This document shows, in pieces, positions 3,731 to 50,616 of a stretch of DNA of 64,000 nt. Source of the stretch: an uncultured Clostridia bacterium. Its GTDB lineage: Bacteria > Bacillota > Clostridia > TANB77 > CAG-508. The stretch lies in the NCBI GenBank assembly GCA_947629355.1, contig CANRDJ010000001.1, positions 20,585 to 84,584 of the forward strand. Reading direction: 5' to 3'. The notes beneath the pieces were generated by a model. That model saw nothing but the letters and a program-made list of their open reading frames with translations. It was not told where the DNA came from and searched no databases. Within the stretch, counting starts at the first letter, position 1. Each line of letters starts with the position of its first letter. Position numbers and translations under genes: made by a program.

Positions 3731-3990
3731 AATTGTAATTTGTTGGGTTAAATTTGTTTTCAAATCCGTAGGGGTCGCACCCCTGGGCGACCCGCGATTG
3801 TAATTTATTTGATAACCTTTTACGCGATTTAGGGCAATTCCTTCGATGTATTCGGGTCGCCGAGGGCGGCGACCCCTACAACATTTGCAACAGATTTAAT
3901 CGTCTGGAAATTCAGGACAGTCCCCTTTTTTTCCTTTTGGAAAAAAAGAGGGACAGTCCCTAGAATTTCCTCTCACAAACAACAATTTAT
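3731..3990. mobile_element. MITE-like element, copy A: TIR AATTGTAATTTGTTGGGTTAAATT, GC-rich three-way-junction core (outer stem GTAGGGGTCGC/GCGACCCCTAC), plus GGACAGTCCC hairpin module
   Basis: GC-rich island in an AT-rich divergent intergenic region. Flanks CCGTAGGGG ... CCCCTACAACATTTGCAA are shared with the copies at 28826 and 45908. Stems differ from those copies by compensatory changes. Confidence 0.6.
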
Positions 3991-8225: not shown

Positions 8226-8250
8226 AAATTCAACACCTCTTATTCTTTTT

Positions 8251-8283
8251 TGGTGAAAAAGGGGCCAGGCCCCTTTTTCACCA
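8251..8283. repeat. REP hairpin variant TGGTGAAAAAGGGG-CCAGG-CCCCTTTTTCACCA, pyrK-pyrD intergenic
   Basis: Same architecture as the TGGCAAAAAAGGGG...GCCA REPs, with compensatory GTG/CAC instead of GCA/TGC in the outer stem. Confidence 0.7.
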
Positions 8284-8287
8284 ATTT

Positions 8288-9062
8288 TTAAATTACTACT
8301 TTATTACTGTCAAATACTGGTCCTTGTTTGCATACATGCTCATATCCGCCATCTACTACTTCTACTGCACATCCCAGGCATACTCCAAGTCCACATCCCA
8401 TTTTTTCTTCTAGTGATATTTGACATGGAATATCTTTTTCTTTTGCTAAGTTTTGAGCTGCTTTAAGTAATGGTAGAGGTCCACATGCAAATATTGCCTC
8501 TATTTTGCCTGCTTCTAAATCTTTTTTTAGCTCATTTATTGCAAATCCATGTATTTTATAACTTCCATCATCTGTTGTAATTACTAATTTGTTTGATACT
8601 TTTTCAAATTCCTCTTCTAATAATACCGCTTCTTTATTTCTAAAACCTAAATATGTATTTACTGTTATAGCTTTTGAGGCATTTTTAGCAAGTTCATATA
8701 AAGGAAATACTCCTATCCCCCCACCGAAGTATCGCTATATTTTTATATTCTTCAAATTTAAATGTACCATATCCTAATGGTCCTACTATATCAACTAAAT
8801 CTTCTTCTTTTTTTCTTGATAGGATTTCTGTTCCTCTTCCTTGAACTCTAAATATTATCTCTAAAACTCCATTTTCCTTATCCATGTTATATATACTAAT
8901 TGGCCTTCTTAAAAATGGATCAATTCCTTCTGTAACTCTTATTTCTATAAATTGACCTGGTTTTGCAATATTTACAATCTCTTTAGCTGACAAAGAAAAC
9001 TTGAATATGTCTGTCTTTAACTGCTCTTTTTTAATCAATTTAGCATGTAATTGTACTGGCAT
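8288..9062 (-). CDS. pyrK: dihydroorotate dehydrogenase electron-transfer subunit, 1-nt insertion near 8726
   Basis: N-terminal FAD-binding part is ORF 8694..9062. The C-terminal part ([14 protein letters not shown]...CGLGVCLGC Fe-S motif) is in another frame. Deleting G8726 gives [14 protein letters not shown]. Confidence 0.8.
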
Positions 9063-27907: not shown

Positions 27908-28061
27908 ATTTCACTCCTTTATTTGTAGGGAAATGCATCTTTTACTTAGCATTTAGTTTAAGTGATAAATCTCAGTCATATGTATTACTTATAAATTGAT
28001 GAATATCCCTTATTTTACAAACCCACACTTGTGAATTTTGTCATTTTTTATTATCATCTTT

Positions 28062-42685: not shown

Positions 42686-43928
42686 TATAATGATTTTTGC
42701 ACCAAGTTTGTTTAGCTTTTTGTCTAAGTTTTCATAGCCTCTTAATATATATTCTATATTATTTACTTTTGTTTTTCCTTTTGCTACTAATCCTGCTATT
42801 ACAACAGCAGCTCCTCCTCTTAAATCTGTTGCTTCTACTACTGCACCATTTAATTTTCTTACACCTTTTACAATAGCAATTTTACCTTCTATGTTTACTT
42901 TTGCTCCCATTCTTTTTAATTCATTTATATATCTATACCTGTTTTCAAATATATTTTCTACTATAACTGAAGTTCCTTTTGCTGTGCAAAGCATTGCTGT
43001 GAATACTGATTGCATATCTGTTGGAAATCCTGGATATGGCATAGTTTTTATGTCTATAGATTTTAATTTTTTAGGTGCATCTATTGTTACACTATTTTTA
43101 TTAATTTCAAACTTACATCCACATTCTTCTAATTTATTAATTATCGGACCTATATGTTCTGGAATAACATTATTTAAATGCACTTTCCCATAAGTTGTAG
43201 CTGCTGCACAAAGAAATGTACCTGCTTCTATTCTATCTGGCATTATATTATAGCTTACATCTTTTAATTTTTTTACTCCTATTATTTTTATAACATTTGT
43301 GCCAGCACCCTCTACTTTTGCTCCCATTTTATTTAAAAAGTTTTGTAAATCTTTTATTTCTGGTTCCATTGCAGCATTAGTAAGAATTGTTTCTCCGCTC
43401 AGCTAAAACTGATGCTAAAATAACATTTTCTGTTGCACCTACTGATGGAAAATCTAAGTGTATTTCTGCTCCAATAATTTTATCACATTTACATTTTATA
43501 TATCCTGATGTTTCGTCTATATTTATTCCTAGTTTTTTTAGTGATTTTAAATGTAAATCTATTGGTCTTGGACCTATATCACATCCTCCTGGATATGTAA
43601 ATACTGCATTTTTAAATCTTGCAAGTATTGCTCCTGCAAGGACTACAGAAGATCTCATTTGCCTCATTAAATCTTCTGGAATTTCATGATTATCCATTCT
43701 ACTTGAGTCTATTATTATTTTACCATTCTTCTTATCTACTTTGCAACCTAAAATCTTTAATATTTTTAAAGTTATTTGAGTATCATGTATATTGGGTACA
43801 TTATATAGCTTACTAACACCTCCATTTAAAATACTTGCAGCTATTATTGGAAGTGAAGCATTTTTAGAACCTGATATATCCACAACTCCTTCTAATCTAT
43901 TTCCACCTTCTATTATGTAACTAGACAT
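42680..43928 (-). CDS. murA: UDP-N-acetylglucosamine 1-carboxyvinyltransferase, 1-nt insertion near 43389
   Basis: ORFs 43377..43928 and 42680..43369 join as ..ASVLAEGETILTNAAMEPEIKD.. when G43389 is removed. Confidence 0.9.
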
Positions 43929-47072: not shown

Positions 47073-47684
47073 TTATTCTAATATTATTTCGTTGTTGTCA
47101 TTAACATATGCAAATTTATATGGTTCTTCTAATTGTCCTTTTTCAATCTCTTTTACTATATTTGCAATTCTAAGTTGTGGACAGCCTATTCCATTTGTTG
47201 CTATGATTGCTTTTTTGTTTCCTTTGGCTCCTGCATGTGCTAACCCTCTTAAAATTCCCAATACAACTATATTCTCTCCTGCTATTGCTTCTGCACCACC
47301 ATTTAAATCTCCTAATATTACAAGACTTCCTTCAAATTCTATTTTTTGACCAGATCTTAGACTTCCTCTATAAAACTTAGTTTCAGATGTATTAATTTCC
47401 TCTTCAAATACTTTTTTTATGCCATGTAATCCTAATGTTTTAGGGCTATCAAACGTAACGTCAACATCAATTTCATCTGTAATTATTTTTTTTATTTCTT
47501 CTATCTCTTTATTTTTTAATACTTTACCTGATACACATATTGGTGTTTTTTCAGCTTTATATAATTTTTTTAGTGCTGGTATTTTCTTGTTTAAACATTG
47601 TATTGTTTCATCATATGTTGCTTTTTCACTTATTCTTATTACTATTTCATCTTTTTTCATACTAATTCCTACTGGGTTTCTCAT
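47073..47684 (-). CDS. minC: septum site-determining protein MinC
   Basis: C-terminal RSGQKIEFEGSLVILGDLNGGAEAIAGENIVVLGILRGLAHAG beta-helix motif. AGGAGGA RBS. No minD/minE downstream. Confidence 0.85.
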   Translation of the reverse strand: MRNPVGISMKKDEIVIRISEKATYDETIQCLNKKIPALKKLYKAEKTPICVSGKVLKNKEIEEIKKIITDEIDVDVTFDSPKTLGLHGIKKVFEEEINTSETKFYRGSLRSGQKIEFEGSLVILGDLNGGAEAIAGENIVVLGILRGLAHAGAKGNKKAIIATNGIGCPQLRIANIVKEIEKGQLEEPYKFAYVNDNNEIILE

Positions 47685-47715
47685 TTATATTCCTCCTTTA
47701 TTTAGTCATTATAGA

Positions 47716-47896
47716 GTTTGAGGGACAAGCCTTAAGTTATTAGCATTCCTCATAGATTGAGGCATGTCCTTTGCAATGTTTGAGGGACAAGCCTTAAGTC
47801 ATTAGCATTCCTCATAGATTGAGGCATGTCCTTTGCAATGTTTGAGGGACAAGCCTTAAGTCATTAGCATTCCTCATAGATTGAGGCATGTCCCTC
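47716..47896. repeat. hairpin-repeat array: three tandem 62-nt units
   Basis: GTTTGAGGGACAAGCCTTAAGT(T/C)ATTAGCATTCCTCATAGATTGAGGCATGTCC(TTTGCAAT) x3, final unit ends GTCCCTCTTTTTAAT. No spacers. Confidence 0.9.
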
Positions 47897-47899
47897 TTT

Positions 47900-49972
47900 T
47901 TAATTGTTTTGCTGTTCTGTATATGGCTTTGCTGTTACGTCTTCATTTATTTCTCCTTTTAAGTTGAAGTATTCTTCTATAATTTCTTTTGTAACTTCTG
48001 CTGTATATGAACCGTGTGCTCCATTTTCTACCATTACTACAATTGCGATTTCAGGATTATCATATGGTGCAAATCCTACAAACCATGCATTAACATTATC
48101 CCCTGCTTCCGCAGAACCAGTCTTTCCACCTACTTCGATATCAAAATCTTTAAATACGCCATATGCTGTTCCTCCAGTTTCTGTTGTAACTGATTTCATT
48201 CCTTCTAGTACTAAATCTAAATTTTCCTTTTTAATATCTAAGTCTTCATTATTTATCTCTGTTAGATTCAATTTTTGTTGAGAATATTGTTTAATTTTTT
48301 CTTTTCCTAATGATATACCATCTGCATCTATTATATCTTTTACAATACTGACTTTGACATTTTTTCCTCCATTTGCAAGCATTGCTATATATCTTGCCAT
48401 TTGAATAGGTGTAAAATTGTTTTCGGCTTGTCCAATTACTGCGGATAAAGAATTCCCATAATACCAGGTTTCTTTCAATTTATTGTATAGAGTTTTTCCA
48501 GCTAGTGTTCCGGATACTTCTCCTGGCAATTCTATATTGGTTTTTTGTCCTAGTCCAAAGTATGTTGCATATTTTTCCAAGTTTTCTATTCCCATTCTAG
48601 TTATTACTTCATAAAAGAAATAGTTACATGAATTTTTTATTGCCCCTGATACGTTTAAGGCACCATGTCCTCTGCCTTGACTAGAATAAATCCAGCATCT
48701 TGGTTTATACCCTCGTGGATATATTCCTGTATCATATATTGTTTCTGTAGGAGTTATTGCTCCTGTTTCCAAACCTGCTATTGCTGATACCATTTTAAAT
48801 GTAGATCCTGGTGCATATGCACTTTGTATTGCTCTATTTACTAATGCGCTTCCTTCCTCTTTAGTATATTCATTCCATTTTTCTGTGCTTATTCCATTAA
48901 CAAATAATTGTGGCTCAAAATCTGGATAACTTGCTATTGCAAGTACGTCTCCTGTTTTTACATCTAATACAACCGCAGCTCCAGATTTTACATCTCTAGT
49001 TTCGTAAAATCCACCTGTTTTTATTTTTTCTATATTATTTTTTAAAGCCTTTTCTGTTGTAGATTGAAGATTCGCATCAATTGTTAATATGACATTGCTT
49101 CCTTGAATTGCTTCTTCTGTTATATATTCTCCTGTTGTTGTTCCATCTATTGACATATCTGTTTGTTTTTTACCATTTTTTCCTCTTAAATATGGTTCAA
49201 ATACGTATTCTATTCCTGCTTTTCCTATATAATCATTCATAGAATAACCTTCCATTTTTTTTAGTTCTTCTTCATTTATTTCTCCTATATATCCAATTGC
49301 ATGTGATGCTAAGCTTTGTCTTAAATATTTTCTAACAGATGATGTTGATATTGATACTCCAGGAAATTCTAAATTTCTCTCTTCAAATATTGCTACACTT
49401 TTTGTACTTATATTTTTTGCTATGGTATATGAATTCATACTACTATAACCTTCTGTTTCTATACCATATCTCATAGCAATTATTTTTCTTGCTTCTTTTA
49501 TATTGTTATTACTTATTTCGTATTTTTCTTTATATTTTTGTAATACCTCTTCTGCTGATGAATTTTCATCTAAATTATTATCTTTCAACCAGTTTTTTAA
49601 TTTCTCATCACTTATTGTAAATTCTGTTGGATTTATTTTAACAGGGAATTCATCTTTATACTTATCTTCATTTGATTCTAAAACTTGTGCTACTTTTAAT
49701 AAAGTATTATTTAGAGTTTCTGTATCTATTTTACTTCTGTATATTTCGACATTATATTGATTTACTGTTCCTGCAAGAACGTTTCCATTTCTATCTAATA
49801 TATCTCCTCTTGCAGCAACAATAGTATTTTCTCTAGTTAATCTCGAACTAGATTTTTGTAAGTATTCTTCACCATGTACTATTTGAAGGTTAAAAAGTTG
49901 TACTAATAGTATGATACCTGTTATATACACAATTACTGTTAGTATATTGTATCTTACATTCTTTTTGTCCAT
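47900..49972 (-). CDS. mrdA: penicillin-binding protein 2 (elongasome transpeptidase)
   Basis: 690 aa. N-terminal TM and PBP dimerisation domain. Transpeptidase motifs STFK (PGSTFK), SxN (SCN) and KTG (GKTGS). Confidence 0.9.
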   Translation of the reverse strand: MDKKNVRYNILTVIVYITGIILLVQLFNLQIVHGEEYLQKSSSRLTRENTIVAARGDILDRNGNVLAGTVNQYNVEIYRSKIDTETLNNTLLKVAQVLESNEDKYKDEFPVKINPTEFTISDEKLKNWLKDNNLDENSSAEEVLQKYKEKYEISNNNIKEARKIIAMRYGIETEGYSSMNSYTIAKNISTKSVAIFEERNLEFPGVSISTSSVRKYLRQSLASHAIGYIGEINEEELKKMEGYSMNDYIGKAGIEYVFEPYLRGKNGKKQTDMSIDGTTTGEYITEEAIQGSNVILTIDANLQSTTEKALKNNIEKIKTGGFYETRDVKSGAAVVLDVKTGDVLAIASYPDFEPQLFVNGISTEKWNEYTKEEGSALVNRAIQSAYAPGSTFKMVSAIAGLETGAITPTETIYDTGIYPRGYKPRCWIYSSQGRGHGALNVSGAIKNSCNYFFYEVITRMGIENLEKYATYFGLGQKTNIELPGEVSGTLAGKTLYNKLKETWYYGNSLSAVIGQAENNFTPIQMARYIAMLANGGKNVKVSIVKDIIDADGISLGKEKIKQYSQQKLNLTEINNEDLDIKKENLDLVLEGMKSVTTETGGTAYGVFKDFDIEVGGKTGSAEAGDNVNAWFVGFAPYDNPEIAIVVMVENGAHGSYTAEVTKEIIEEYFNLKGEINEDVTAKPYTEQQNN

Positions 49973-50018
49973 ACTTGATTTTACCTCCTTCTTTTATGTT
50001 TAATTTGTGTTATTACAA

Positions 50019-50081
50019 AGTTTGAGGAACATACCTTAGCATACGGAGGATTTCTCATAGGTTGAGGTATATCCCCCGTTT
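50019..50081. repeat. single degenerate hairpin-repeat unit between PBP2 start and mreD stop
   Basis: AGTTTGAGGAACATACCTTAGCATACGGAGGATTTCTCATAGGTTGAGGTATATCCCCCGTTTTTAAT. Confidence 0.65.
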
Positions 50082-50616
50082 TTAATAGTATCTAGTTAAT
50101 ATTTTATTTTCTGTAAATATTTTTTCCAATAATACACCTAATCTATTAATTACTGGATATATAATGATTATTATCATTGCATTAAATATTATTTCTAATA
50201 GTATTATTTTTATAAATGCTAAAATCTCAAATGATAATTTAAATAATACCATTTGAATTATATATGATATTATTTCGCATATAAGTGTTGTTACAACTGA
50301 CATTAGCATTATTGTAATTCTACTATCTTTTGAAAGATTTTTTGTAAACATTCCTCCGCATTAATCCTGATATTCCTAATACTATTGCGTTTATTCCAAG
50401 TGCTTTTCCAATAAATAAGTCTAATGATAATCCAAGTATTATTCCTATTGATGCACCATATATTTTGCCTATAAATATTCCTATAAACAATGAAAGTAAT
50501 ATAAAAAGATTTGGTTTTACTCCTGCTATGTTAAACCAATTAAAGAAATTCGATTGTAAAAAATATATAAAAATAAATGATATAAATATAATTATAATAG
50601 ACAATATCTTTTTCAT
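50082..50616 (-). CDS. mreD: rod shape-determining protein MreD, 1-nt insertion near 50358
   Basis: ORFs 50323..50616 and 50082..50351 join as ..GISGLMGGMFTKNLSK.. when G50358 is removed. Polytopic small membrane protein directly upstream of PBP2. Confidence 0.7.

Follow-up and report, generated by a model that had tools for sequence, protein, structure and literature searches.

The element analysed here is a hairpin-forming repeat unit of 58–62 nt (typically ~60 nt), which recurs singly or in tandem at gene boundaries of gut Clostridia. It is probably a lineage-specific family of small non-coding, non-autonomous interspersed hairpin repeats, of the kind represented by BOX, REP/BIME and MIRU. 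The family is new and its kind is well known; the strictness of its orientation and its association with stop codons are unusual. Literature searches turned up reviews covering small repeats in general and no account of this element family. The window is the whole stretch of 64,000 nucleotides that was analysed; loci in other assemblies carry L numbers.

Repeat loci in the window

The element was found at seven loci in 64 kb, counting 38733 and 38830 apart, and all copies are on the minus strand.

47707..47902 (−): three units with a period of 62, between mrdA/PBP2 (47900–49972) and minC (47073–47684)
38830..39012 (−): three units with a period of 58, at the trmB 3' end
38725..38780 (read directly: 38733–38780) (−): one unit in the 5' UTR of purM that lost the apical motif through a 19-nt internal deletion
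14666..14790 (−): two tandem units within the 5' UTR of the M18 aminopeptidase gene, whose true start is ATG 14637–14639
42615..42682 (−): single unit directly after murA; TAA 42680–42682 is the murA stop
50011..50084 (−): one diverged unit past the stop (50082–50084) of an 89-aa ORF, upstream of mrdA
27947..28015 (−): decayed copy, 44 bits with the covariance model

An earlier note on this DNA had spoken of six loci and listed five starts. The listed sites are real, whereas the total had to be raised to seven with the decayed copy at 27947–28015. The G/C positions of this copy drifted to A/T, and it is orthologous to an intact unit in L041. Tandem repeat analysis (TRF) bore out the array of a dyad-symmetric direct repeat described at 47716, with a period of 62, 2.9 copies and 99% matches at 47716–47893, and the units folded as long hairpins. 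The second long array (38834–38996) had a period of 58, 2.8 copies and 92% matches. The core CCTCATAGATTGAGG (≤2 mismatches) matched the window 10 times, always on the + strand, with 0.04 matches expected by chance from shuffled sequence. Every strong window match of a covariance model of the element was on the minus strand. The flanking genes are encoded on the minus strand, and the element is therefore best read as the reverse complement of the + strand sequence given in the earlier note.

The window host has a G+C content of 28% and carries spo0A. The neighbours of the element (aminopeptidase, spo0A, purM, trmB, murA, minC and mrdA) are unrelated housekeeping genes. The gene at 42680 is murA and not trmB; trmB adjoins the 38830 array. 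Four of the loci begin exactly at or just past a stop codon, namely those of mrdA, murA, the 89-aa ORF and trmB. For mrdA, the TAA of the first unit (47900–47902) is the stop codon of PBP2, and the array ends 24 nt before the minC start. Two further loci lie in 5' UTRs, a few bases past promoter-like sites. The aminopeptidase array starts a few nucleotides after a conserved extended −10 promoter (TTGTAT-N17-(TG)TATAAT), and its first unit is kept at this site in 9 species, being as conserved as the promoter. The purM-proximal unit is located just 3' of a promoter-like TTGAAA-17-TATAAT and is intact in other strains (L145–L147, L149).

Sequence and folding of the unit

Read in the gene sense, which is the minus strand of the window, the unit is TAAAAC–GAGGGACATNCCTCA–(ATCTATGAGGAAT + variable 9–12 nt)–TGAGGYKTGTCCCTC–AAACCTTGTAAA. 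The finer arrangement of the full unit is TAAAAC–GAGGGACAT–N–CCTCA–ATCTATGAGGAAT–variable 9–12 nt (typically RCCNNTGAC)–TGAGG–YK–TGTCCCTC–AAACCTTGTAAA. The two ends are asymmetric, with TAAAAC at the 5' and AAACCTTGTAAA at the 3' side. The arms GAGGGACATNCCTCA and TGAGGYKTGTCCCTC form a 15-bp stem, and the hairpin ends are terminal inverted repeats (GAGGGACA...TGTCCCTC), as expected for a MITE. The apical motif AUCUAUGAGGAAU is nearly invariant, an invariance partly built in by the fetching pattern for the loci, which contained the motif; the variable stretch next to it is less conserved. Copies were indeed found to vary mostly in one internal stretch, the ~12 nt before the distal TGAGG. Each of the three frames of the consensus is closed by a TGA (codon 12, 6 or 10), and most unit lengths, such as 58, 61 and 62 nt, are not divisible by 3.

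Alignment of 60 distinct full units supported the stem. Standard pairs were present in 93% of the cells, as compared with 26–55% when the partner was slid by 1–3 columns. Changes compensated on both sides occurred in 7 of the 15 stem pairs, including A-U to G-C at the loop-adjacent pair and at stem position 10, and CC/GG to GC/GC in L029. At the aminopeptidase site, a G-C to A-U switch was observed between orthologous units. Stem position 9 is a conserved irregularity (T·G in 41 units, T·T in 45). Outside this position, there were 23 G·U and 26 A·C pairs, with no excess of G·U in this count for the structured strand. Folding of single units yielded −20 to −35 kcal/mol with z values of −3 to −8. 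An alternative local pairing, CCUCA/UGAGG, is possible in 96% of the cells and displayed only one-sided (G·U) changes. A three-way-junction or local-hairpin model was rejected: its proximal CCUCA/UGAGG pairing is compatible with the sequences, but compensatory changes were seen only in the distal pairing.

Tandem direct repeats with internal dyad symmetry and a regular period of ~60 nt are reminiscent of a CRISPR array or of the repeat-RNA (ToxI-like) array of a type III toxin–antitoxin system. The chance that the element is either of these is close to nil. In agreement with the earlier note, unique spacers were absent; the whole period repeats at 92–99% identity. The element occupies dozens of loci, with many in a genome and many of them single-unit, and neither cas nor toxN-like genes adjoin any window array. 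Rfam searches at the gathering score and at E values up to 10 returned no CRISPR-DR or other family for the element. The gathering-score matches in the window were two tRNAs only, and the best relaxed matches on the array were chance miRNA hits with E values of at least 0.17.

Orientation and stop-codon overlap

An HMM survey of the window and 57 fetched loci yielded 82 arrays of 1–6 units each. Both neighbouring genes were called for 72 of these, and 63 arrays were sense to both neighbours. Seven arrays were sense to one neighbour (divergent or convergent pairs, some being gene-calling artefacts), and a single one was antisense (L031 2514), in a 229-nt gap after a gene end. The family is ~98% sense-oriented and lies mostly inside co-directional gene runs. 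The TAA of the element, 6–8 nt before the stem, serves as the stop codon of the upstream gene in 27 arrays. In 6 arrays, trmB among them, the upstream frame reads into the element. On contig CANQVU010000004.1, arrays occur on both strands, each sense to its own genes; as a single case, this favours a link with transcription over a link with replication. Leading and lagging strands assigned from the gene-strand majority in the 8-kb loci were too noisy to separate replication from transcription bias.

A sense-strand intrinsic terminator was ruled out, because in this orientation AAACCUUG and no U-tract comes after the stem. Only on the antisense strand does the stem precede GUUUUAAU. The element might be a one-directional intrinsic terminator against antisense transcription entering operons. 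On the antisense strand, a complete stem ends every array and is followed by G/T-TTTTAAT, and the lone antisense copy (L031 2514) sits past a gene end, where a terminator would fit. However, the U-tract has 4–5 U and the loop region spans 22–27 nt, unlike the own terminators of this DNA at 33731–33819 and 8238–8295. A terminator scan, which limits the loop size, flagged only fragments of the element. Since the tandem units, the conserved loop and the stop-codon overlap would also be left unexplained, we consider this explanation very unlikely.

The same placement data bear on another alternative, namely that the element acts in cis as an RNA module which the host selects for at cistron boundaries and at the 5' ends of mRNAs. 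A trans-acting factor (RNA-binding protein or RNase) would act through the AUCUAUGAGGAAU loop, and the stability, processing or translation of many operons would be set together. The almost exclusive sense orientation speaks for it, as does the exact placement directly past stop codons and just 5' of ribosome-binding sites; the aminopeptidase and purM copies lie at the very 5' end of the mRNA, after the promoter. Up to 9 species keep copies at orthologous sites, with an intact stem and one compensatory change, the loop motif is more conserved than the neighbouring stretch, and sense-strand changes in the alternative CCUCA/UGAGG hairpin are limited to G·U. The opposing observations are that the neighbour genes share no common functional theme and that the unit number differs between strains of one species. 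Individual copies have become AT-rich remnants, have collapsed or nested, or have lost the loop motif by deletion, and close relatives are without the element at the same sites. Moreover, G·U (23) does not exceed A·C (26) outside the one stem position, leaving no clear RNA-strand signal. On balance, we regard such a regulatory role of the family as doubtful.

Growth, alleles and decay of the arrays

Only the 5'-most unit of an array keeps the whole left arm, in accordance with the earlier claim that the complete arm GTCCCTCGTTTTAAT is found only at the high-coordinate end of each array. Later units are 5'-truncated and start at a junction (e.g. TAAA/GACAT, TAAAG/GGACAT, with the slash at the junction, or TAACGAGACAT) that is constant within an array and different between arrays. 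The units of one array differ by 0–3 bases, and the similarity of the variable region is 0.88 within arrays versus 0.71 between them. Because of this difference, we take one local duplication followed by amplification as the main origin of each array.

The predicted copy-number variation between strains was also observed. Alleles of the window species were recognised by identical PBP2, MinC or PurM proteins. Depending on the sample, the mrdA–minC array consists of 1, 2 or 3 units, the one-unit allele carrying a linked C/A SNP, and the trmB–purM array of 2 or 3. Several contigs break off within the repeat. In their local growth and shrinkage, the arrays behave like VNTRs. Copies collapsed across the hairpin were seen in L022, L034 and L060, some copies are nested within one another, and the element is absent from L058 at purM and from L042.

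A subfamily carries an extra 5' module, (A)ACTGACATCAGT..CACAG, with a TAGGGACA/TGTCCCTA stem and a T-A closing pair. It was found in L014, L021, L028, L031, L032, L037, L038, L048, L050, L051 and L056. These copies are directly 5' of ribosome-binding sites at unrelated junctions, such as gatA–gatB, pyrB–pyrI, mcsB–clpC and the pheS leader, the last after a T-box-like terminator.

Host range and empty sites

With one genome per species scanned, 57 stretches in ~18 MAGs matched a 21-base pattern of the element. Almost all of these MAGs are labelled uncultured Clostridia or Clostridium, and they come from rabbit, goat and other samples. Viral contigs gave no match. Among 80 metagenomic minC loci, the element was present only in the closest, with 85% MinC identity; it was absent from the 79 loci with MinC sequences ≤79% identical.

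The empty mrdA–minC junctions are short, for example CAAAAC TAA TAAAGGAG..ATG and CAAAAC TAA TAAAGGAGCGATAAAT ATG. Comparison of filled and empty sites gave inconsistent boundaries: TAAA-like at mrdA–minC, an RBS-like ~9-bp duplication for L016 versus L042, and none at purM. Many copies are bordered by TAAA-like direct repeats, although in A-rich DNA. Neither a transposase for the element nor a target-site duplication or a recent insertion was demonstrated. A search of 0.78 Mb for an IS608-type TnpA, or for a parent IS sharing the termini of the element, likewise found none, a weak negative given the approximate queries.

One junction was captured in three states, filled (L016 1870–2160), empty (L042 1480–1580) and collapsed (L022 3800–3950). 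An RBS-like AAAGGRGA borders the array at either side in the filled L016 allele and occurs once in the empty allele. This doubling may be a ~9-bp target duplication or a re-created ribosome-binding site.

The RAYT-like gene and its flanking repeat

A tblastn search with transposase queries hit 12724–13152 and thereby revealed a RAYT-like Y1 transposase gene at 12394–13152 (−), encoding 252 aa from ATG 13152. The protein matched Pfam Y1_Tnp (PF01797) with 50.5 bits (cut-off 23) and NCBIfam REP_Tyr_transpos ('REP-associated tyrosine transposase') with 60 bits, the latter below the curated cut-off of 80. The gene is directly downstream of the aminopeptidase gene, as in five other species (syntenic in 6). 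It is flanked at 13200–13237 and 12350–12390 by an inverted pair of another hairpin repeat with the core GGGGACAGACCCC/GGGGTCTGTCCCC. The flanking hairpins in the window are ATGGCAAAAAGGGGGACAGACCCCTTTTTTGCCAT (ATGGCAAAAAGGGGGACAGACCCC..) and ..GGGGTCTGTCCCC.., neither being the element studied here. An inverted repeat pair around the gene is the canonical RAYT–REP arrangement (PMC2817692), and such a pair of the non-element repeat was found in all 6 species. Its stems match within a species and differ between species. The flanking core (GGGGACAGACCCC or GGGGCCAGGCCCC) goes with the RAYT type, and the studied element is unchanged in both backgrounds. These results point to the flanking repeat, not the studied element, as the cognate REP. 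The earlier assignment of the element to a distinct repeat family is upheld, the GGGGACAGACCCC family around the RAYT-like gene being separate.

The presence of the gene, syntenic in 6 species, nevertheless raises the question of whether the element is a REP/REPIN-type repeat mobilised as ssDNA by the RAYT-like transposase of the window, its stem arms being two inverted REP-like half-sites. The arms of the element (GAGGGACATACCTC/GAGGTGTGTCCCTC) resemble the flanking core (GGGGACAGACCCC/GGGGTCTGTCCCC) at ~10 of 13 positions, as judged by eye; the similarity is short and GC-rich. The conserved stem mismatch is also a feature of the hairpins recognised by IS200/IS605 and RAYT enzymes. Against this, another hairpin repeat surrounds the gene in every species, this repeat changes with the RAYT type while the element does not, and the NCBIfam score of the protein is under the curated cut-off. 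REPs have a GT(A/G)G head next to a 20–40-nt imperfect palindrome, and BIMEs alternate in orientation (PMC2817692). The element has no such head (5' flank TAAAAC, 3' flank AAAC), its palindrome is ~52 nt, it does not flank the RAYT-like gene, and all units of every array are head-to-tail rather than alternating. Mobilisation of this kind as the origin of the element appears improbable. Because the arms resemble the REP core, cross-mobilisation of the element by the RAYT is conceivable.

Further copies of the RAYT-flanking repeat were noticed in the window. One hairpin copy, TGGCAAAAAAGGGGACAGACCCCTTTTTTGCCA, is at 35680–35725, in frame within the purL (FGAM synthase) ORF (34294–37608, −), to which it adds ..WQKRGQTPFLPK.. 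with the frame unbroken. An inverted doublet (GGGGACAGACCCCC ... GGGGGTCTGTCCCC) at 33731–33819 forms a long, REPIN-like and terminator-like hairpin. Related GAGGGACAGTCCCTAGAAT motifs are found at 3948 and 47036.

Comparison with known small repeats

The element is not a sequence member of BOX, MIRU or REP/REPIN. BOX of Streptococcus pneumoniae is modular, its length varies between strains, it forms a stem-loop when transcribed, and its mobiliser is uncertain (PMC3049150). Like BOX (boxA–boxB(n)–boxC), the element is a small non-coding Firmicute repeat with strain-variable tandem modules, predicted stem-loops and copies nesting in one another. BOX has three different modules, whereas the element has one repeated unit and a 5' cap; no sequence relationship is evident, and the likeness is architectural only. 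Approximately 61% of BOX copies follow the coding bias, as compared with ~98% sense orientation here. BOX, RUP and SPRITE accumulate downstream of genes and between convergent genes, whereas the element is mainly inside operon-like runs.

In this latter respect, the element is closer to MIRU: both have 40–100-bp tandem units in operons, co-oriented with the flanking genes, and the copy-number polymorphism is also present here. MIRU, described by Supply et al. in 1997 and 2000, reportedly consists of tandem operon repeats that abut gene boundaries and are polymorphic in copy number between strains. It is oriented and inserted in operons (PMC12548453). However, the short ORF of MIRU couples to the start codon of the neighbour, whereas the frames of the element are closed and its contact is with the upstream stop. 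MIRU is not built on a 15-bp hairpin.

With REP/BIME/REPIN, the element shares an abundant extragenic imperfect palindrome kept by compensatory changes, frequent (for the element, predicted) co-transcription at gene 3' ends and a RAYT-like gene in the genome. It differs in the missing GT(A/G)G head, the head-to-tail units and the RAYT-like gene being flanked by the other, co-varying repeat. Correia/NEMIS (Neisseria) and ERIC (enterobacteria) are co-transcribed long hairpins with possible orientation-dependent effects on mRNA processing or stability (PMC3049150). Their terminal inverted repeats form a stem, as in the element, but they are 100–170 bp long, occur in both orientations without head-to-tail arrays and, for Correia, are accompanied by a TA duplication.

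Proposed behaviour and significance

As an interspersed hairpin repeat, the element would be transcribed within the operon mRNA, where a strong hairpin is predicted. With no U-tract 3' of the sense hairpin, transcription would be expected to read through. In the reverse orientation, the 15-bp stem before GUUUUAAU would act like a terminator, and such copies would be removed by selection. The near-absence of the reverse orientation inside transcription units may be due to this terminator-like effect. Selection alone may be insufficient for a 63:1 ratio, and an orientation-specific insertion mechanism is possible. Effects on the host would be by-products of the hairpin, such as protection of the 3' or 5' mRNA end or the provision of a processing site. 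Stem-loops at the 5' terminus and at the 3' end are mRNA stabilisers in Firmicutes.

Among the observations at odds with the repeat-family interpretation are the inconsistent boundaries of filled and empty sites, the nearly absolute orientation within operon-like runs, and the conservation of the first aminopeptidase unit across 9 species, which fits a selected role better than neutrality. Two more far-reaching proposals can be made, and we consider it unlikely that either holds: an 'operon punctuation' RNA module read by a protein or RNase through the AUCUAUGAGGAAU loop, or insertion coupled to transcription or to TAA stops. If true, the punctuation module would tune expression within operons at dozens of loci. 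The insertion-coupled version, e.g. ssDNA entering the non-template strand, would explain both the near-absolute sense orientation and the stop-codon overlap.

Taken as a repeat family, the element joins a REP-like hairpin to a MIRU-like, strictly sense placement in operons. It offers a natural system in which to ask whether an orientation bias arises from selection against terminators or from the insertion mechanism. The RAYT gene with a different cognate repeat in the same genome is a possible internal control. For the annotation of gut Clostridia MAGs, the element explains contig breaks inside the repeat and strain length polymorphisms, and it is usable as a VNTR-like strain marker. It also explains spurious ORF extensions and altered C-termini, TrmB being an example.

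Effects on the adjoining coding sequences

The earlier note had proposed that two arrays became coding. For the aminopeptidase, the proposed extension did not hold up, as it is only an open frame 5' of the real start. The NCBIfam match begins at residue 44, and a ribosome-binding site is followed by the ATG at 14637–14639; the 14666 array is therefore 5' UTR, and the 'extension' is an ORF-calling artefact.

The takeover of the trmB C-terminus, on the other hand, was confirmed. The frame enters the first unit of the 38830..39012 array, reads ..ALIAIKTRDMPQSMRNACD for 14 codons and stops at TGA 38967–38969, although trmB is frameshifted in the window. Most orthologues among 120 relatives end in ..KA(L/I)IA(K/R)xx or similar (e.g. 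..KALIAKLK), unlike the window protein; a natural occurrence of its end residues in TrmB, which the earlier note had named as a refutation, was thus not borne out. Other element-bearing trmB alleles end in IKRGTYLNL or LK before the stop codon, which are other frames of the same element.

Two genes next to the element are split in the window. The murA gene is divided into ORFs 43377–43928 and 42680–43369 (junction 43369–43380, −), apparently by one additional C (GAG C GGA) within the conserved ..LAEGETILTNAAMEPEI.. segment. An assembly error, a pseudogene and a second paralogue are the candidate explanations. The trmB gene (38967–39666, −) is split by a frameshift into a 50-aa N-terminal ORF (39514–39666) and a remainder in another frame. 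A genuine pseudogene is more probable than a sequencing error, because the same 50-aa fragment was called in an independent assembly (L145).

In a related species without the element, L061 3160–3260 is the region downstream of trmB. Here, classic GTAG-headed REP-like palindromes, GTAGGGGCGAATTGCATTCGCCC and GTAGGGGTCGGCGCCCAGGCGACCC, occupy the position of the window array. The repeat family at this trmB site appears to differ from lineage to lineage.
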